Assembly: GCA_028287105.1 (NCBI GenBank)
Contig: JAQBQH010000154.1
Coordinates: 28,095 to 92,094 of the forward strand
Reading direction: 5' to 3'
DNA length: 64,000 bases
DNA from: Myxococcales bacterium
GTDB lineage: Bacteria > Myxococcota_A > Polyangia > Palsa-1104
The position numbers and the translations under genes were made by a program. Every line of letters starts with the position of its first letter. The stretch's first letter is position 1. The notes under the pieces were generated by a model. It was not told the DNA's origin. It searched no databases and saw only the letters and a program-made list of their open reading frames with translations. Below, piece after piece: positions 14,597-23,063 of this stretch.

Positions 14597-15358
14597 ATGA
14601 GTGAACGTCTGAAGGGAAAATTGGCGCTCGTCACCGGCGGCAGCCGCGGCATCGGCGCCGCCATCGCCGAGTCGTTCGCCGCCGCGGGCGCCCGCGTCAT
14701 CATCGCCTCGCGCAAGATCGATGAGCTCGAGGCGACCGCCGCGCGCATCAACGACAAGCACGCCGGCTCCACGCTCGCGCGCGCCTGCCACACCGGCCGC
14801 GTCGAGGCCATCGCCGAGCTGTTCAGCTGGATCGATCAGCAGGGGCCGCTCGACATCGCGGTCAACAACGCCGCGACCAACCCCTATTTCGGACCGCTCA
14901 TGAATGTCGAGTGGCCGGCGTGGGACAAAACCTTCGAGCTCAACGTGAAGGGCTACTTCGAGGTCGCGCGTCAGACCGCGAAGCGGCTGCTCGCGTCCAA
15001 TCGTCCGGGCTCGATCATCAACATCGCCAGCATCACGGGCCTGCGCGGCTCGCCGATGCAGGGCGTGTACGCGATGTCGAAGGCGGCGGTGATCTCGATG
15101 ACGCAGACGCTCGCGGTGGAGCTCGGCCGCGCGCGCATCCGCGTCAACGCCATCGCGCCTGGGCTCATCGAGACGCGGCTGGCGGCGGCGCTCATCCAGA
15201 ACGAAGAGGCGGCCAAGCTCTTCACCGATCGCGCGGCGCTCGGGCGCCACGGACAGCCGGAGGAGATCGCCGGCATCGTCACCTATCTCGCGTCCGACGA
15301 GGCTTCGTTCGTGACCGGACAAACCTTCCCCGTCGACGGCGGCTGGACCACGACCTGA
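14597..15358 (+). CDS. SDR family oxidoreductase (FabG-like 3-oxoacyl reductase fold)
   Basis: TGGSRGIGAAIA, NNAA and YAMSKAA (YxxxK) motifs. Size is 253 aa. Confidence 0.85.
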   Translation: MSERLKGKLALVTGGSRGIGAAIAESFAAAGARVIIASRKIDELEATAARINDKHAGSTLARACHTGRVEAIAELFSWIDQQGPLDIAVNNAATNPYFGPLMNVEWPAWDKTFELNVKGYFEVARQTAKRLLASNRPGSIINIASITGLRGSPMQGVYAMSKAAVISMTQTLAVELGRARIRVNAIAPGLIETRLAAALIQNEEAAKLFTDRAALGRHGQPEEIAGIVTYLASDEASFVTGQTFPVDGGWTTT

Positions 15359-15487: not shown

Positions 15488-18190
15488 GTGCGCCATCTCG
15501 GAGTACTGACCCTCGTCGTCACAGTCAGCGCCTGCAACGCACCCTCACCGTCGGGCGGCAAGCCCGCGCCGAGCGACACGCCGACCCGCGCCTCGCGCGT
15601 CGAGGAGCTGATGGCGCGCGTCCACGCCCTCGGCGGCGACGCGCCCGTCGACGCCGACGGCACGCTGCCCGATGTGCGCAACCACGACGCCGCGTCGCTG
15701 GCGTCCAACGACGGCAAGACCGTGATCGAGTTTCCGCTCGCCCACACGAGCGTGCTCGCCGACGTGACCGGCAACATCGCGCGCGTCGAGGTGACCCAGC
15801 TCTATCAGAACCCGACCGAGCAGCGTCTCGAGGCGATCTACAAGTTCCCGCTGCCCCAGAACGCCGCCGTCACCGACATGATGTTCCGCATCGGCCGTCG
15901 CGTCGTCGTGAGCGAGGTGAAGCGGCGCGAAGAGGCGCGCCGGACCTACGAGATGGCGAAGCGCGAAGGGCACACCGCCGCGCTCACCGAACAGGAGCGT
16001 CCCAACCTGTTCACGCAGTCGGTGGCCAACATCCCGCCCGGCGAATCGGTCGAGGTGGTCATCCGCTACGTGCACGAGGTCGCGTTCGACGACGGCCGCT
16101 ATCAGTTCCATTTTCCGACGACGATCGGCCCGCGCTACAATCCGCGCGACGGGGTCGCCGACAAGGCGGCCATCACGCCGCCGGTGGTCGCGCCCGGCGT
16201 GCGCTCGGCGCACGACCTCGACATCGTCGTGCAGCTCGGCCCCGCCGACGCCTTCGCCGGCGTCGCAGCGCGCAGCCACCGCATCCTGAGCGCCGTCGAC
16301 CCGCGTCTCGGAAAGCGGCTGATCACGCTCGGCGACGGCGACCATCTGCCCAACAAAGACTTCATCCTCTCCTGGCGCCCGGCCGCCCAGGAGCCCGACG
16401 CGCGCATCTTGACCGCGCGCGATCGCGGCGACGACTACTTCATGCTCTTCGTGCAGCCGCCTGCCGACGTCGCGCCCGCGATGGTCCGCCCCAAGGAGCT
16501 GGTGTTCCTCGTCGACAAATCGGGATCGATGTGGGGTGAGCCGCTCGACACCGCCCGCCGCGTCATCATCGAGGCGCTGCACAAGATGGGACCGGAGGAC
16601 ACCTTCCAGATCATCACGTTCGACTCCACCACCGACTACATGACGAAGCAGGCGCTGCCCAACACGCCCGACAACGTGGCGGCGGCCGAGCGCTGGATGG
16701 CGAAGATCGAGGGCGGCGGCGGCACCGAGATGCTGGCCGGCATCCGCGCCGCGCTCGACCAGCCGTACGACCCGAAGCGCCTGCGCATGGTGGTCTTCTG
16801 CACCGACGGCTTCATCGGCAACGAGCGCGAGATCATCGAGCACATCGGCAAGATGCGCGGCCAGTCACGCGTCTTCGGCTTCGGCATCGGCTCGTCGGTG
16901 AATCGCTATCTCATCGAGGGCGTCGCGCACGCCGGTCGCGGCGCGGCCGAGATCGTGCGCCAGGGCGAGCCGGCCGACGAAGCGGTGGCGAGGCTCTACA
17001 AGCGGCTCGATCGCCCGGTGCTCACCGACGTAAGCTTGCGCTTCTCCGGCGTCGAGGTCGAGCAGATGATGCCGTCGCGCCTGCCCGACCTGTTCGCGGG
17101 CCAGCCGCTCGTCGTCGTCGGTAAGGTTCGCGGCAAGGGCCCCGCCACCGTCGAGCTGACCGGGCGCCTCGGATCGAAGCCGTACGCGCGCACGCTGCCG
17201 GTCACGACTAGGGGGGAGCGCGATCCGGTGCTCGGCACGCTCTGGGCGCGCCGTCGCATCGCCGAGCTGGACGACCTCGACGAGCGCGGCGCCGACGCCG
17301 GACAGAAGGACGAGATCATCGCGCTGGCGCTGCGCTGGAAGCTGATCACGCAGTACACCTCGTTCGTCGCCGTCGAGAAGCAGCTCAAGGTCGACACGCG
17401 CGTGCCGCTGGCGCAGCTGCTTGTGCCCAACGAGCTGCCCGAAGGCGTCGCCTACAAGGGCATCTTCGGCGAAGAGGTGGCCGCGGCCAACGCCGACATC
17501 ACGCCGGCGCGGGTCAAGCCGGGCGATCCCGAGGTGCGCGTGCAGGCGCCGCCGACGGCGCACGTGCGGGTCCTTCTGCCCTGGTCGCGCCGCCCGGTGC
17601 GCGCGCACTTCGACGCACCGACGGGCGACCACGTGGCGCGCTTCCTCGTGCCGGCCGGCTGGCCCGACGGCAGCTGGACCGCGCGCGTGATCATCGACCA
17701 CGCTCGCGGCGCGCGGGAGGAGCGCAGCGTCGAGCTCCACGTCGACACCCGCGCCGCCGCCATCGCCGTCGTGTCGGCACCAGCCACCGTGCACCCGGGT
17801 GAAGCGCTGACGCTGGCGCTCAAACCGGCGCTGCCGGTCGACCTCGTGGCCGAAGCGCTCGAGACTGCCACGCCCGGCGGCGCAGGCGCGGCGCTCAAGA
17901 GCGCCATGGACGTCAAAGAGATCTTCGTGCGCGCGCCATGGGGGGAGATCGGCCGCGCCCGCCTCGTTGGACCGCTCGGCCTCTACACGGTGACGCTACA
18001 CGTGCCGCGGCTCGCCGCCCGCGGAGCGACGAGCTTCGAGATCGTCGCCAGCGACACGGCGGGCAACGTCAGCCGTCGTCAGCTCGCCGTCGACGTGCAG
18101 CCGGCCTCGCGCACCGCCTACGCCGGCGCGGCGCTCCTCATGCTCCTCGCCGGCAGCCTCTTCGCGCGCCGCCGCCGGGTGCGCGCGTGA
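15488..18190 (+). CDS. VIT (vault/inter-alpha-trypsin) plus von Willebrand factor A domain lipoprotein with a C-terminal hydrophobic/Arg anchor
   Basis: AGGAG RBS followed by GTG. Lipobox VTVSAC. The VWA MIDAS motif DKSGSM is present with conserved T and D residues. The C-terminus is YAGAALLMLLAGSLFARRRRVRA (MYXO-CTERM-like but without Cys). Confidence 0.75.
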   Translation: MRHLGVLTLVVTVSACNAPSPSGGKPAPSDTPTRASRVEELMARVHALGGDAPVDADGTLPDVRNHDAASLASNDGKTVIEFPLAHTSVLADVTGNIARVEVTQLYQNPTEQRLEAIYKFPLPQNAAVTDMMFRIGRRVVVSEVKRREEARRTYEMAKREGHTAALTEQERPNLFTQSVANIPPGESVEVVIRYVHEVAFDDGRYQFHFPTTIGPRYNPRDGVADKAAITPPVVAPGVRSAHDLDIVVQLGPADAFAGVAARSHRILSAVDPRLGKRLITLGDGDHLPNKDFILSWRPAAQEPDARILTARDRGDDYFMLFVQPPADVAPAMVRPKELVFLVDKSGSMWGEPLDTARRVIIEALHKMGPEDTFQIITFDSTTDYMTKQALPNTPDNVAAAERWMAKIEGGGGTEMLAGIRAALDQPYDPKRLRMVVFCTDGFIGNEREIIEHIGKMRGQSRVFGFGIGSSVNRYLIEGVAHAGRGAAEIVRQGEPADEAVARLYKRLDRPVLTDVSLRFSGVEVEQMMPSRLPDLFAGQPLVVVGKVRGKGPATVELTGRLGSKPYARTLPVTTRGERDPVLGTLWARRRIAELDDLDERGADAGQKDEIIALALRWKLITQYTSFVAVEKQLKVDTRVPLAQLLVPNELPEGVAYKGIFGEEVAAANADITPARVKPGDPEVRVQAPPTAHVRVLLPWSRRPVRAHFDAPTGDHVARFLVPAGWPDGSWTARVIIDHARGAREERSVELHVDTRAAAIAVVSAPATVHPGEALTLALKPALPVDLVAEALETATPGGAGAALKSAMDVKEIFVRAPWGEIGRARLVGPLGLYTVTLHVPRLAARGATSFEIVASDTAGNVSRRQLAVDVQPASRTAYAGAALLMLLAGSLFARRRRVRA

Positions 18191-19299
18191 TCGCCCGCTC
18201 CACGATCCGCCGTCGCCGCTGGACCTGGCCGCGCCTCCTCGTCCTCGCGGTAGCGACGGTCGTCGGCTTCGTCGTGACGGTGCCGACGGCGCGGCTGCGC
18301 TACCTGGCGCTGCCGGTGCTGCATGACCCGAGCGTCCCGTCGGCCGCCGTGCCACGCGCGATCGCCGACGCCCCCCCGAGCGGCGCCACGCTGGTGACGC
18401 GCCTGCCGAGCCGCGTCAGCGCGGTCCTGCCGCGCAGCGATGGCAGCGTCTTCATCGGCACCTTCGACGAAGGGCTCTTCCGCTTCGACCCGGCGCGCGG
18501 CGGCGCCCCCGTCGCCGTCGGCGGCCTCGAAGGACGCGAGCGCTTCGTCGATGCGCTCGTCGAGCATGACGGCCGCGTCATCGCCGCCACCCATCGCGGC
18601 GCCGTGGTCGTCGGCGGCGACGGCACGCGTCTCGGCGTCCTCGCCCCCGGCGAAGCGATCTCGTCCCTCGCCGTCGTCGACGGCGCGCTCGTGGCCGGCA
18701 GCGCGCGCGGCCTGTGGACCGGCGCATCTACCGTGACCGGCTCGCCGGTGACCGGCTCGCCCCTCGGCGAGCGCGGCCCCACGGGCGAGATCCTGCGCGT
18801 CACCGCCCTCGCGGTCACACGCGCACGCCTTTACGTCGGCACGCCCGACGGCGTCTACGTGCTCCAGCGCCCGCTCACCGCCCAGGTCGCGCGCTGGCAG
18901 CCGCTCGTCTTCGGCGCGCCGCCCGCCGAGACCAACGTCGTCACCGCGCTGGCGCCGCTCGGCGACGGCGTCGTCGCCGGCACCGACGACGGCGGCCTGG
19001 TCCTGGTGCGCGACGACGGCGTGAGCGCGCTGCCGCTCACGGAGGCGCGCGCCAACGACGTCAACCCCGGCGCCATGGCCCACTTCGGCGGCACCATCTT
19101 CGTCGGCACCGAAGGCGCCGGCCTGCTCCAGCTCGCCGGCAGCGACGTCACCCGCCCCTCCGACTGGCGCCGCGCGCGCATCTCCGCCGTCGCCGCCGGT
19201 GCGCGCCTGTTCCTCGGCACCGAGGACGGCGAGCTCTGGGCCCTCCCTGCCGCTCAGCCGCTGGCGGCGTCGAGGATCTTCTGGATCAACGCGTCGTAG
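18187..19299 (+). CDS. Membrane-anchored beta-propeller repeat protein (two-component-regulator-propeller-like repeats)
   Basis: GTG start overlaps the upstream stop (GTGA at 18187-18190). N-terminal TM WPRLLVLAVATVVGFVVTV. Repeats of the GxWxG / (L/I)(Y/F)VGT(E/P)DG type occur at least five times. The 3' end overlaps the convergent ATP-grasp gene by 46 nt. Confidence 0.6.
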   Translation: MIARSTIRRRRWTWPRLLVLAVATVVGFVVTVPTARLRYLALPVLHDPSVPSAAVPRAIADAPPSGATLVTRLPSRVSAVLPRSDGSVFIGTFDEGLFRFDPARGGAPVAVGGLEGRERFVDALVEHDGRVIAATHRGAVVVGGDGTRLGVLAPGEAISSLAVVDGALVAGSARGLWTGASTVTGSPVTGSPLGERGPTGEILRVTALAVTRARLYVGTPDGVYVLQRPLTAQVARWQPLVFGAPPAETNVVTALAPLGDGVVAGTDDGGLVLVRDDGVSALPLTEARANDVNPGAMAHFGGTIFVGTEGAGLLQLAGSDVTRPSDWRRARISAVAAGARLFLGTEDGELWALPAAQPLAASRIFWINAS

Positions 19300-20255
19300 T
19301 CGGTGCCCACCGCCGCCGCCGACTGCGCGAAGTCGTCCTCGCGCGCCAGCGACGGATTGGGATTGGCCTCGATGACCACCACCTCGCCCGCCGGCGACAG
19401 CCGCACGTCGACGCGCCCGAGCCCCTTGATCTTGAGCACGCGATACACGGTGCGCGCGATCTTCTCCAGCTTGGGCGACAGCCCGTCGGGCAGCGGCGCG
19501 GTCGGCCCGTTCTTGATGCCCCACTTCTTGCGATAGACGTCGTCCCACTTGGCCTTCGAGGTCGCGAACTTCGGCGCGTCGTCGGCCAGCTTCTCGAAGA
19601 AGAGCTCGCGCGCGGGGAACACCGTGAGCCTCTTGTTGCCCATGACGCTGACGTAGATCTCGCGCCCCTCGATGTACTCCTCGATCATCACGTCGCCCTC
19701 GTAGCGCTCGTGCAGGAAGCGCACCCGCTCGAGCACCTCCGCCTCGTCGCGCGCGAACGACGCCTGCGCGATTCCGTCGGACGACTCCTCGCCGACGGGC
19801 TTGACGAACGCCGGATAGACGAAGCGCTTCAAGCTGCGCAGCGGCCGCGACCCCGACGACATGACGAAGCGCGCCACACGCACGCGGTGATACGACAAGA
19901 GCTTCTTGGCCAGCGACTTGTCCTTGCACAGCATGAGCGCGTCGGGCCCGGCGCCGGTATAGCGCACCTTCAAGAGCTCGAGCAGCGCCGGGATGTTGGG
20001 CTCGTTGGAGCGCTGCGCGTGGAACGACTCGGTCAGATTGAAGACGATGTCGGGCGCGAAGTTCTTGATCTTGTCGACGATGGCGACGACGTTGTCGAAG
20101 ACCGCCAGCGTATCGGTCTCGTGTCCGAGCCGCCGCAGACACTCGAGCACGTCGGCCTCGGTCGGCTTGTCCTCTTCCTTGCGCAGCGTCTCGGGCGAGA
20201 ACTCCTCGCCGTCGCGCGGCGCGCGATGCAGATCGAACAGGATGAGGATCTTCAT
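19254..20255 (-). CDS. ATP-grasp ligase, D-alanine--D-alanine-ligase-like
   Basis: 333 aa. Ddl-like N-domain (MLCKDKSLAKKLL) and ATP-grasp core (FVKPVGEESSDGI...IEEYIEGREIYVSVMG...GRVDVRL...VIEANPNPSL). The start ATG overlaps the stop of the upstream metallopeptidase gene (ATGA). Confidence 0.75.
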   Translation of the reverse strand: MKILILFDLHRAPRDGEEFSPETLRKEEDKPTEADVLECLRRLGHETDTLAVFDNVVAIVDKIKNFAPDIVFNLTESFHAQRSNEPNIPALLELLKVRYTGAGPDALMLCKDKSLAKKLLSYHRVRVARFVMSSGSRPLRSLKRFVYPAFVKPVGEESSDGIAQASFARDEAEVLERVRFLHERYEGDVMIEEYIEGREIYVSVMGNKRLTVFPARELFFEKLADDAPKFATSKAKWDDVYRKKWGIKNGPTAPLPDGLSPKLEKIARTVYRVLKIKGLGRVDVRLSPAGEVVVIEANPNPSLAREDDFAQSAAAVGTDYDALIQKILDAASG

Positions 20256-21322
20256 ACCGACCTCTTGAATCGTCCGGTATGCAGATGGTTGGTCACCAGC
20301 GCCGCCAGGTAGGCCGACAGATCCATCATCAAGCGCGGTTGATTGGTCGGCGTGGTCAGGCCGAGGCTCTCGCAGCGCAGCATCAATCGCCGCACCAGCT
20401 GGTCGACGGTGTACTTGTGCTCACCGGTCCAGCGCACCACCGACGGGACGATCACCTTGCGGCCGCGCCGCATGAAGCGCGCCGCCGACTCCTCGCCCGG
20501 CTCGCCGGAGAAGATGGCGACCAGATCGGCGTCGTAGAAATCGGGGTAGTCCTCGGCGTACTGCTTGCGGCGCTCGGCGTAATAGCGCGCCAGGGTCTTG
20601 CGCATGCGGCTCGCATCCGAGATGCGCCGCAACGGCACGCGCCTGGGCGGCATCCGCGTCGCCGCCGCCTCCTTCATCAGCTCGTCGACGTACTCGAGCT
20701 TCTCCAGCGCCTTCCAGCGACGGTAGCGCGCGCGCCACTCTTTTTCCGGCGTGCCGAGCCAGACCGCGAAGGTCTCGGCGAAGTCCTCGTCGGGATGCGC
20801 CTGCGCATACCAGTTGGCCAGATGGCGCACGAAGCTCTTCGAGTAGGCGCGCGGCCGGTAGATGTCCGGCGTCGCGTCGTTGTCGGTGTTGCCGAACAGC
20901 CGCCGCCATTTGCGGCGCCGCGAGAAGCGATAGACGTGATCGATCGCGTGCCCGCACTCGTGCCGCAAGAGCTGCAGGCACCACTCGGGCGTGCCGCCCT
21001 CGACCTCGAGCACCTGACGCAGCTCGAGCGCCTTGAGCCGCGGATGTGCCAGCCAGAACGGAATTGCGATGAGCGCCTGCTCGGTCGGCGTGAACCACTC
21101 GTCACCGAGGTAGCAGCCCGGGCGAAGCGCCAGCCCGCGCGCCTCCAGCTCCGCGTGCAGCTGCAGGATGAGCGGCTCCAGCTCGCTGCCTTCGACGCGC
21201 ACGCCGAGATCGCAGATGCGCATCGCCAGGAGCTCTTCGTCGCGCGCGTCCGCCCACGGCGGGTCGAAGAGGGGCGGCATCGGCGGCGCCGGCGCAGGGG
21301 CCGACGGCTCCGGAGCGTCCAT
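20252..21322 (-). CDS. Putative zinc metallopeptidase (HExxH: HECGHAIDH), uncharacterised family
   Basis: 356 aa. The single HExxH motif has a nearby third His/Asp. Composition is Arg/Trp/Tyr-rich. The gene is translationally coupled to the ATP-grasp gene downstream. It resembles the family annotated as putative zinc-binding metallopeptidase that co-occurs with ATP-grasp ligases; this is from recollection and was not searched. Confidence 0.65.
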   Translation of the reverse strand: MDAPEPSAPAPAPPMPPLFDPPWADARDEELLAMRICDLGVRVEGSELEPLILQLHAELEARGLALRPGCYLGDEWFTPTEQALIAIPFWLAHPRLKALELRQVLEVEGGTPEWCLQLLRHECGHAIDHVYRFSRRRKWRRLFGNTDNDATPDIYRPRAYSKSFVRHLANWYAQAHPDEDFAETFAVWLGTPEKEWRARYRRWKALEKLEYVDELMKEAAATRMPPRRVPLRRISDASRMRKTLARYYAERRKQYAEDYPDFYDADLVAIFSGEPGEESAARFMRRGRKVIVPSVVRWTGEHKYTVDQLVRRLMLRCESLGLTTPTNQPRLMMDLSAYLAALVTNHLHTGRFKRSV

Positions 21323-21363
21323 GACGTGAGAATAGCGCGGGATTCCCCAGAAGGGAACTTTCG

Positions 21364-21405
21364 GCCGTCGAGCCGCGGATCGCTCTCAGCCGTCGAGCCG
21401 CGGAT
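21364..21405. repeat. 17-nt perfect direct repeat x2 (gccgtcgagccgcggat) with an 8-nt spacer, straddling the stop codon of the small CDS
   Basis: The two copies are at 21364-21380 and 21389-21405. Confidence 0.7.
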
Positions 21406-21697
21406 GCAGCGACTCGACACTCTCGCGCCACACCTCGAGCGCGATCTCCGCGCGGGTCCGCGCGATCGCGCGGCGCGTGGAGGTCGTCGTCGCTTCTTGC
21501 AGCACCCGCTCGACGAAGTCACGCGAGCTGTCGAGCGCCACCGCGAGACGCGGCAGGCCAGCGTGCAGAGAGGCCTCGATGGCGCGACGTAGGTCACCAG
21601 CCAGCTGCTCGAGCTGTCGCCGTTCCAACAGCTCCGCGTCGGTGGACTCTACGATGTGCACGTGGACCAGATGCTTCAAGTGGCGTGCCGTAATCAC
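21386..21697 (-). CDS. Small helical hypothetical protein (103 aa) upstream of the metallopeptidase
   Basis: MITARHLKHLVHVHIVESTDAELLERRQLEQLAGDLRRAIEASLH... The composition is protein-like (E/L/R/A), unlike the antisense frame. A 17-nt perfect direct repeat flanks its stop codon. Confidence 0.45.
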   Translation of the reverse strand: MITARHLKHLVHVHIVESTDAELLERRQLEQLAGDLRRAIEASLHAGLPRLAVALDSSRDFVERVLQEATTTSTRRAIARTRAEIALEVWRESVESLHPRLDG

Positions 21698-21771
21698 CTG
21701 ACCCCCGCGGGTCGCAGCAGTGTGATCGACGCGACTTGCGGTCAGGCGACGTCGGCTTATGCCAGAGCAGG

Positions 21772-22230
21772 GTGAGTACCGTAGACACTAATGAAGGAGA
21801 CACGCTGGCCGCGCTGGCGCATGACCTGCGCAGCGCGACGGCCGCCGCGCTCTCGATCGGATCCTGGTTCGCGCCGACGCTCGACGACTGTCGCGTCGAC
21901 GTCGAGCGCCTCCTGGCGCTCGATCGAGATCACCGCCCGCCACACGACGTGCACCTGTTGCAGACGCGCGCGGAGCTGGCGCTACGCACCTGGAGCCGCA
22001 TCGTCGCCGTCACCGGTGCGAAGCTGCCGCGCTGTGGCGTGTGCGCGGGCGGGATCCTCGTCGAGATCGCCCGGCCGGGGCGCACGGTCCCCTTTCGCGG
22101 CGTTCAGATCGAGCTACCCGCGGACTTCGCCATTCCGACCTGCGACCACTGCGGCGCCGAGACGCTCGATGCCGCCGGCGGCGCGCGCCTCGACACGATG
22201 CTCATGACGGAGTATCTGCGCCGGACCTAG
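21772..22230 (+). CDS. Hypothetical protein with C-terminal MqsA/YgiT-type zinc ribbon (CGVCAGG...CDHCGAE)
   Basis: Frame of track ORF 21736..22230; the start is uncertain (GTG at 21772 or TTG at 21736). The C-terminal pattern CxxC-(~30 aa)-CxxCGxE matches the MqsA/YgiT zinc-finger layout. Confidence 0.5.
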   Translation: MSTVDTNEGDTLAALAHDLRSATAAALSIGSWFAPTLDDCRVDVERLLALDRDHRPPHDVHLLQTRAELALRTWSRIVAVTGAKLPRCGVCAGGILVEIARPGRTVPFRGVQIELPADFAIPTCDHCGAETLDAAGGARLDTMLMTEYLRRT

Positions 22231-22300
22231 TCAGCGAGCAGATGCGAGTGGCTCAGATGTGCCGCTCGCTCAGATGTGCCGCTCGCTCAGATGTGGCGTT
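22231..22300. repeat. Tandem 17-nt repeats (about 3 to 4 copies, decaying) in the convergent intergenic region; the last copy forms the 3' end of the response-regulator CDS
   Basis: The sequence ggctcagatgtgccgctc / gctcagatgtgccgctc / gctcagatgtggcgttc is preceded by the degenerate copy cgagcagatgcgagtg. Confidence 0.7.
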
Positions 22301-23063
22301 CGATGGTGTTGAGCAGGAGCGGCACGTCGAGCGGCTTGATGAGGTACTCGTTCACGCGCAGCTGCGCGGCGTGCCGCCGCACGTCGGTCGCCGCCGACAG
22401 GATGACGACGGGGATGGCCGCCAGCCGATCGTCGTCGAGCTGCGCGGCGCGAAACGCCCAGCCGTCCATCACGGGCATCATTAGATCGAGGAGGATGAGC
22501 CGCGGCGGCGCGTCGGTCTCGCGCAGATAGCGCAGCGCGGCCCCACCGTCGGAGGCGCCGATGACCTGGAAGCCCTCCTCCTGGAGGATGGTCGAGATGC
22601 TGTTGCGGATGTCGTCGTCGTCCTCGACGAGGAGCACGGTCCCGCCCGCGTGCGAGTCGATGGTCGGCTGCATGTGTCGCTTGACCTCGTCGAGGAGCGC
22701 GTCGATCGAGCAGGGCTTGGCGATGAACGCGTCGCAGCCGCTCTCCTTGGCGCGCTCGTAGTGTCGTCGGCTCACGTGGCCGGTGAGCATCACGACCGGA
22801 ATGTCGGCGGTGCGCGAGTCGCTCTTGAGTCGATGGGTCGCTTCGCAGCCGTCGACGCCTTTGAGCTCGTAGTCCATCACGATCAGATCGGGCGACATCG
22901 AGATGGCCAGCTCGTAGGCGTGCTCGCCGTTGTCGGCGCCGACGACGGCATAGCCGGCACCCGCGAGGACCTCGGAGTAGAGCTCGTAGCACTCGGCCGA
23001 GTCTTCGACGAGCAGCACGAGGCACTGGCGGGATGTAGGCGCACCATTGGCCATCGTATGCAT
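22287..23063 (-). CDS. Response regulator with two tandem receiver (REC) domains and no output domain
   Basis: REC1 LVLLVEDSAECYE...DLIVMDYELKGVDG...AKP and REC2 VLLVEDDDDIRNS...LILLDLMMPVMDG...IKP. Phospho-acceptor Asp residues are present in both. Confidence 0.8.
   Translation of the reverse strand: MHTMANGAPTSRQCLVLLVEDSAECYELYSEVLAGAGYAVVGADNGEHAYELAISMSPDLIVMDYELKGVDGCEATHRLKSDSRTADIPVVMLTGHVSRRHYERAKESGCDAFIAKPCSIDALLDEVKRHMQPTIDSHAGGTVLLVEDDDDIRNSISTILQEEGFQVIGASDGGAALRYLRETDAPPRLILLDLMMPVMDGWAFRAAQLDDDRLAAIPVVILSAATDVRRHAAQLRVNEYLIKPLDVPLLLNTIERHI

Follow-up and report, generated by a model that had tools for sequence, protein, structure and literature searches.

Several described pairs of enzymes consist of a ligase and a hydrolase that act on one bond, including glutathionylspermidine synthetase/amidase, VanA/VanX, cyanophycin synthetase/cyanophycinase, and RimK with RimB. 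Here we describe a two-gene module found in a 64,000-nucleotide (nt) stretch of DNA from the metagenome-assembled genome of a Myxococcales (Polyangia-like) bacterium (GenBank assembly GCA_028287105.1, contig JAQBQH010000154.1, positions 28,095 to 92,094), which is referred to as the window and whose first position is numbered 1. In this module, a zinc metallopeptidase-like protein is encoded immediately upstream of an ATP-grasp ligase related to the D-alanine–D-alanine ligases (Ddl). The source databases name the two proteins only generically, and the window copy is an ordinary member of a catalogued pair, both families being already present in Pfam and in NCBI annotation. What is added here is that the module consists of two genes, that the label given to the ligase is wrong in its specificity, and that a small open reading frame (ORF) and direct repeats next to the pair are incidental. 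The features of the pair are as follows.

20252-21322, minus strand: gene for a zinc metallopeptidase-like protein of 356 amino acids, PF15887 (Peptidase_Mx) family (from the ORF list and Pfam)

20252-20255, minus strand: ATGA stop/start overlap with translational coupling (from the sequence)

19254-20255, minus strand: gene for an ATP-grasp ligase of 333 amino acids with a complete Ddl fold and a predicted non-Ddl substrate site (from Pfam, NCBIfam, AlphaFold2, and Foldseek)

A co-translated and co-inherited gene pair

The peptidase and the ligase form a co-translated, phylogenetically co-inherited pair. Their junction reads ggtcggtATGAag, in which the TGA stop codon of the peptidase gene and the ATG of the ligase gene have four nucleotides in common, and an AAGAGG motif resembling a Shine-Dalgarno sequence lies upstream of the ligase ATG. 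A preliminary description of this DNA had listed the 356-amino-acid HExxH protein, the ATGA overlap, an ORF of 103 amino acids whose stop codon lies 63 nt from the peptidase ATG, and a 17-nt repeat at that stop codon, and all of these are present in the sequence. Its identification of the two large genes as a Ddl-like ATP-grasp enzyme and a "putative zinc-binding metallopeptidase" agrees with their Pfam families (PF07478 and PF15887, respectively).

One genome per species (GTDB) was scanned with an alignment of the peptidase, which yielded more than 542 relatives, and the 80 best loci were taken; individual loci are denoted below by numbers preceded by L. These 80 loci cover at least 10 phyla, with representatives in Acidobacteriota, Myxococcota, Bdellovibrionota, Planctomycetota, and Verrucomicrobiota and also in Omnitrophota, Nitrospirota, Dormibacterota, Methylomirabilales, and others. 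The clade of the window pair is also present in a cultured host, Candidatus Nitrospira allomarina (WP_312640457.1). An ATP-grasp gene was found directly downstream on the same strand in 75 of 82 peptidase loci; three loci end at a contig edge and four lack the gene, which gives 75 of the 79 loci with room. When the search was started from the ligase, the peptidase was found upstream in all four further loci (L093-L096), which include members of Binatia and Margulisiibacteriota. With the two search directions summed, the order of peptidase followed by adjacent ligase is present in 79 of the 83 loci with room, a strong co-occurrence of the kind that the preliminary description had anticipated. 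The estimated spacer between the two genes has a median of 10 nt over the 75 loci, being 30 nt or less in 65 of them and zero or less in 16, and the 4-nt overlap recurs in L093, L094, and L096. In L095 (3984-4981), the peptidase gene is broken over three reading frames, which points to a pseudogene or to a fault in the assembly. Over the loci, peptidase and ligase have correlated identities to their window copies (r = 0.92), and both genes are under purifying selection, with ratios of nonsynonymous to synonymous substitution (dN/dS) of 0.15 and 0.28.

The module is strictly two genes and self-contained. Clustering of flanking ORFs of at least 90 amino acids over the 82 loci recovered only shadow ORFs and generic neighbors, and no third partner; thus, a seven-transmembrane or transglutaminase partner, which the preliminary description had proposed to look for, is not conserved among these flanking ORFs. 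Since no neighbor of any kind is conserved, neither is a transporter or a tailoring enzyme. Furthermore, no precursor-like ORF of 20 to 110 amino acids at a distance of up to 900 nt from the pair is conserved over the 82 loci.

Searches for regulatory elements and for signs of mobility were likewise negative. No riboswitch for the pair was found in the window region and 11 diverse loci, where the RNA-motif scan yielded nothing beyond tRNAs, a CRISPR array, one sub-threshold small RNA match, and cobalamin riboswitches at a distance of about 5 kb, which are unrelated. The array, found in a member of Nitrospirales (L040, 8158-10827), is long, carries CRISPR-DR9 repeats (Rfam), and begins about 170 nt downstream of the pair, which is probably coincidental. 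A scan for promoter and terminator consensus sequences found nothing. The proteins of the pair matched none of the PADLOC defense-system models, and a tblastn search with the peptidase against 72,556 plasmid and 50,697 phage records gave no match. Among phage protein families, a single non-significant match to the ligase was obtained (E = 0.054).

The ligase

The ligase is predicted to be a working enzyme of the Ddl fold and not a D-Ala-D-Ala ligase, because the residues specific for D-Ala are changed while those for ATP, Mg, and acyl-phosphate are kept. The protein, which is identical to NCBI protein JWN44_2787, matched PF07478 (Dala_Dala_lig_C) with 98.3 bits against a cut-off of 24. It reached about half of the cut-off of the NCBIfam Ddl models (128.1 versus 243 for NF002378 and 114.8 versus 245.65 for TIGR01205) and fell below the cut-off of all 25 Ddl and Van models among the matches listed. 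Its AlphaFold2 model has a mean confidence (pLDDT) of 90.6. All 50 of the PDB matches listed by Foldseek are D-Ala-D-Ala or D-Ala-D-lactate ligases, with TM scores of 0.66-0.75 at 18-25% identity, and superposition of the model on these enzymes covers the full three-domain fold.

To place individual residues, the sequence of Escherichia coli DdlB, which matched PDB entry 2dln over all 306 residues, was aligned to the profile of the ligase family. Residues K97, K144, S151, E180, and E187 of DdlB correspond to the invariant K113, K152, S159, E192, and E199 of the ligase, and R255, D257, E270, and N272 to the invariant R281, D283, E296, and N298; the lid lysine, Lys215, is the invariant K236. Other positions differ. 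Y216 of DdlB is replaced by W237, S150 by Ala in the family consensus (with Ser kept in the window protein), and M259 by the invariant R285, which together with R198 and R209 makes up a set of additional invariant arginines. The Ser281-Leu282 pair, which holds the carboxylate of D-Ala2 in DdlB, is replaced by Glu or Asp at position 307 and an invariant D308, in an ungapped stretch that is anchored on both sides. Where the first long helix begins, the ligase has an invariant E33-x-x-V36 that mirrors E15-x-x-V18 of Ddl, and E33 is the probable counterpart of E15, which binds the amino group of D-Ala1.

Cell-wall synthesis is not represented among the genes next to the ligase in the window, L001, L002, and L093-L096, which include no mur/fts-type cluster. 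Scores far below the curated cut-offs, changed substrate residues, and the lack of cell-wall context all set this enzyme apart from housekeeping Ddl, with which the preliminary description had considered that it might cluster. The database label "D-alanine–D-alanine ligase" would therefore be wrong in specificity and misleading.

The peptidase

The core of the peptidase is predicted to be a zinc peptidase of the lethal-factor type, resembling anthrax lethal factor (LF), the Pro-Pro endopeptidases (PPEP), and MtfA. In the Pfam scan, the match to PF15887 scored 33.2 bits against a gathering cut-off of 27 and covered residues 119-189 only; PF15887 matches are also precomputed on homologues of the protein. 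Its single HExxH motif, HECGHAIDH, contains H121-E122-x-x-H125. In 34 homologues of 31-89% identity, no variation is seen at H121, E122, H125, Y172, D180, or E183, conservation of E179 reaches at least 90%, and the architecture of about 340 residues is kept across the whole length. The second motif, Y172-A-Q-A-H-P-D-E179-D-F-A-E183 in the window protein and YAQxHPDEDFAETFAVWL in the family, fits the Y-x6-E-x-F-A-E type of motif found in LF, PPEP, and MtfA, which contains the catalytic Tyr and the Glu that is the third zinc ligand. The spacing of seven residues between Tyr172 and Glu179 equals the distance from the catalytic Tyr to the third zinc ligand in LF and PPEP-1.

Comparison of structures gave values of 7.3 for anthrax LF, 6.9 for PPEP-3, 6.7 for PPEP-2, and 4.9 for MtfA, and of 6.8 for the "putative zinc-binding metallo-peptidase" BACCAC_01431 of Bacteroides (4l7a). 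Foldseek again placed the group of LF, PPEP, 4l7a, and MtfA on top, none of these matches being significant, and a PDB sequence search with the peptidase found no relative. The catalytic core (residues ~60-205) is followed by a less conserved helical domain (~205-350) of about 150 residues, for which the structural comparisons found no clear relative. Neither the peptidase nor the ligase has an obvious N-terminal signal peptide as judged by eye, without a predictor. Both families of the pair are abundant and highly conserved. That of the peptidase has at least 8000 clusters at 90% identity; at 50% identity, there are 2230 clusters with E <= 1e-3, and 552 of these reach E <= 1e-30.

Proposed function and alternative explanations

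We propose, with about an even chance of being right, that the two proteins work in the cytoplasm as a make-and-break pair of enzymes whose target is an amino-acyl amide. The ligase would activate a carboxylate, probably that of an amino acid, as an acyl-phosphate, with E33 holding the amino group, and the acyl group would then be joined to an amine acceptor other than D-alanine. Because Glu or Asp 307 and the invariant D308 stand at the D-Ala2 position, the acceptor would lack a carboxylate there and might be cationic. The peptidase would hydrolyze the same bond or a closely related or competing amide. The two activities together would control how much of an aminoacyl mark, or of a small compound of the aminoacyl-amide or dipeptide-like kind, is present; neither the small upstream gene nor the repeats would be involved. 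A bolder extension, which we consider unlikely, is a phylum-spanning system of reversible aminoacylation in which the Ddl-derived ligase loads an amine that is cationic, for instance on a metabolite of the polyamine type or at a lysine or the N-terminus of a conserved protein, and the lethal-factor-like zinc amidase unloads it. If true, this would represent a new writer/eraser pair in bacterial physiology.

Several points weigh against the make-and-break proposal. The idea that peptidase and ligase share a bond comes solely from the linkage of their genes. LF, PPEP, and MtfA act on polypeptides, and a protein or peptide substrate is therefore favored over a small molecule. As the N-terminal domains have no significant alignment, E33 was equated with E15 by helix position and by the E-x-x-V motif. 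In four Acidobacteriota loci, mostly of Vicinamibacterales, no ligase lies within the flank of the peptidase, and the peptidase may have a different use in that lineage. Finally, a literature search on PF15887 and Peptidase_Mx returned one unrelated paper and no experimental work on either family, and nothing of relevance was found in the literature on ATP-grasp enzymes together with zinc-binding metallopeptidases, MtfA, or lethal factor.

The ligase-less loci have features of their own. In L038 (1401-2948) and L059 (7337-8815), an M28 peptidase with a PA domain follows the peptidase in place of the ATP-grasp gene, and in L059 (3690-5933) and L064 (3621-5864), a TonB-dependent receptor is encoded upstream of the peptidase.

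The main competing explanation, possible though doubtful in our judgment, is that a conserved protein of the cell receives one amino acid or several, at a terminus or on a side chain, from the ligase and loses them to the peptidase, the two enzymes serving as writer and eraser of a protein tag. RimK acting on ribosomal protein S6 and tubulin tyrosine ligase working with carboxypeptidases are analogues of such a system. A tag of this kind would suit a peptidase whose structural relatives cleave polypeptides, and the lack of conserved transporter or biosynthetic neighbors is what would be expected for a housekeeping target encoded elsewhere; the family-specific insertions that the ligase carries following strand 1 and within the omega-loop region, together with the invariant R198, R209, and R285, also fit. 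However, the resemblance of the ligase to Ddl extends over its full length and includes K236 and the putative amino-binding Glu33, as is typical of enzymes with small substrates, while no RimK-type Pfam signature is present in the window ligase and no candidate target gene is linked to the pair. Cell-wall chemistry of the VanA/VanX type, with the ligase making a non-canonical D-Ala-X terminus and the peptidase destroying the canonical dipeptide, is improbable. The Ddl-like fold, the fact that Ddl and Van ligases are the best matches in both sequence and structure, and the position of a ligase beside a zinc hydrolase all recall VanA and VanX; but the ligase lies far below every Ddl and Van cut-off, has acidic residues at the site of the D-Ala2 carboxylate, and has lost the S150/Y216 triad. 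In addition, the LF-like HExxH core of the peptidase is unlike VanX, which belongs to the M15 family, and the clustering of flanking genes, in which mur/fts, VanH, and VanRS were not searched by name, revealed no conserved neighbor.

It is more doubtful still that the pair makes a peptide natural product, with the ATP-grasp enzyme acting as a graspetide-type cyclase or L-amino-acid ligase, the peptidase as a maturation protease, and the 103-amino-acid protein as precursor or scaffold. An ATP-grasp enzyme with a protease is a common pairing in graspetide clusters (PMC8939145), yet this ligase is of the Ddl and not the microviridin type, neither a precursor-like small ORF nor any other neighbor is conserved, and the 103-amino-acid ORF accompanies the pair in one related locus only and is found elsewhere without it. 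A mobile defense or toxin-antitoxin-like module would be the least expected outcome of all. The genomic context of the pair does differ between lineages, identities of 65-70% between Polyangia and Bryobacteraceae suggest horizontal transfer, and a cassette with a weak match to an MqsA-like ribbon, described below, adjoins the pair in the window. Against these stand the lack of any PADLOC match, the absence of the peptidase from the plasmid and phage records searched, and the distribution of the cassette, which marks it as a lineage-specific neighbor and not a partner.

Whichever substrate the make-and-break pair may prove to have, the analysis yields a corrected annotation and a minimal two-protein system that could be reconstituted in vitro, because the ligase is predicted not to be a true Ddl, is nearly always co-translated with the peptidase, and has no other conserved partner. 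Once the substrate is identified, thousands of genes would gain a function in Planctomycetota, Verrucomicrobiota, Nitrospirota, Acidobacteriota, Myxococcota, and Bdellovibrionota, phyla that have been little studied.

Neighboring genes and repeats

Upstream of the pair, the window contains the following features, all of them outside the module.

21358-21405, no strand assigned: tandem duplication (unit of 23 nt, period of 25 nt) that surrounds the stop codon of the 103-amino-acid ORF and contains the 17-nt repeat

21386-21697, minus strand: ORF of 103 amino acids with a GTG start, half of a lineage-specific small-gene cassette

21736-22230, plus strand: divergent ORF of 164 amino acids, a paralogue of the 103-amino-acid ORF with a C-terminal CxxC...CxxC zinc ribbon

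22287-23063, minus strand: double-receiver response regulator of 258 amino acids that lacks an output domain

Both small ORFs look like real genes, judging from a GC content at third codon positions of 0.82 for the 103-amino-acid ORF and 0.82-0.85 for the two together, and from dN/dS values against L084 of about 0.26 (103 amino acids) and 0.38 (164 amino acids). The 103-amino-acid protein shares 40% identity over 70 residues with the N-terminal half of the 164-amino-acid protein (E = 5e-5), whose true start is probably a GTG at ~21772. The sole family match of the latter is to TIGR03830 (MqsA-type ribbon), with 15.5 bits against a cut-off of 61.8 and over the zinc-ribbon part only, and a PDB sequence search with it found nothing. 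An MqsA-type antitoxin was considered and rejected, as the match is below the cut-off and the neighboring gene encodes a paralogue of the protein's own N-terminal domain and not an MqsR-like toxin. The HxxHxH at the N-terminus of the 103-amino-acid ORF is not conserved in L084 and may lie upstream of the true start.

The two divergent genes occupy an insert of about 900 bp between the response regulator and the peptidase, which is present in the window (21386-22230) and in its closest relative, L084 (2492-3322), whose peptidase is 87% identical and whose homologue of the 103-amino-acid protein shares ~73-75% amino-acid identity. No such homologue was found beside the pair in the 82 scan loci or in L085-L087 and L093-L096. 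Relatives of the 164-amino-acid protein occur in five metagenome loci without peptidase or ligase; in one of these (L088, 291-1143), the same divergent couple lies beside an unrelated response regulator and an epimerase. The cassette may have a regulatory role.

The 17-nt repeat ATCCGCGGCTCGACGGC has exactly two copies (21364-21380 and 21389-21405), whereas shuffled sequence gave a mean of 0.2 matches and reached two matches in 2 of 100 shuffles. The unit is in fact 23 nt long at 91% identity with a period of 25 nt, and the repeat is therefore a tandem duplication. Another tandem array, of three copies of the 17-nt unit GCTCAGATGTGCCGCTC (100%, 100%, and 88% identity), extends across the stop codon of the response regulator at 22251-22301. 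Both arrays are absent from L084 and are recent slippage-type duplications; the genome apparently tends to acquire short tandem duplications where genes end. The 17-nt repeat was also considered as a site of regulation or recombination, and this was rejected; the duplication is strain-specific and missing from the closest relative.

These distributions bear on the preliminary description, which had treated peptidase, ligase, and the 103-amino-acid protein as a trio and the direct repeat as part of the same feature. The peptidase-ligase core of that trio is kept, but the third gene is confined, beside the pair, to the window and L084; of the 87 other pair loci checked, 86 lack it, among them the syntenic L002, L085, and L086. 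Because it is missing from slightly more distant syntenic relatives and the cassette occurs elsewhere without the pair, the 103-amino-acid ORF is placed outside the module, and the repeat is excluded along with it on account of its absence from L084. A role of the 103-amino-acid protein as substrate, scaffold, or precursor was rejected on the same grounds, as the protein is missing from nearly all pair loci and is found apart from the pair.

The same response regulator is found in the Polyangia relatives L002 (7186-7962), L085 (4221-4994), and L086 (5194-5982), where it ends 15-38 nt before the peptidase with nothing between. This arrangement suggests a lineage-specific three-gene operon of regulator, peptidase, and ligase, which in the window is broken by the small-gene cassette; the association with the regulator was not seen in other phyla. 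On the other side, an ORF of about 360 amino acids (~18190-19299, plus strand) whose Pfam matches to families of the beta-propeller type (SGL, Reg_prop) are weak and below threshold converges on the ligase and overlaps its 3' end by 46 nt, an overlap that is kept in L002 and L083-L085. Beyond it lies an ORF of 900 amino acids (15488-18190, plus strand) at the place where L002 and L085 have a protein with VIT-VWA domains, the two being equated by position alone, and then an SDR gene (14597-15358). The 900-amino-acid ORF belongs to the conserved Polyangia neighborhood, but in other phyla it does not accompany the pair.

Comparison with known systems

Compared to Ddl (DdlB, 2dln) and VanA-type ligases, the ligase of this module has the same three-domain ATP-grasp fold, the same residues for ATP, Mg, and acyl-phosphate, and a probable counterpart of E15 in E33. 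It has about 20 additional residues inserted behind strand 1 and an extended omega-loop, and it also differs in its low identity (18-25%), W237, E/D307-D308, R285, its peptidase partner, and the absence of a cell-wall cluster.

Compared to LF, PPEP, and MtfA, the peptidase gives no significant match to the corresponding Pfam families, is predicted to be cytoplasmic, and carries the helical C-terminal domain of about 150 residues. Among relatives in PF15887 and PF15890 (Peptidase_Mx1; BACCAC_01431, 4l7a), the Bacteroides-type proteins are lipoproteins tied to TonB-dependent substrate import according to the description of NCBIfam TIGR04549, to which the match is weak. In contrast, members of the clade described here have no obvious signal peptide by eye and are linked to an ATP-grasp ligase.

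With regard to the ligase/hydrolase pairs named at the outset, the hydrolase families differ. By analogy, however, the present module may share with all of them a common plan, in which an ATP-dependent amide ligase is encoded with, or fused to, a hydrolase of the same or a competing product.

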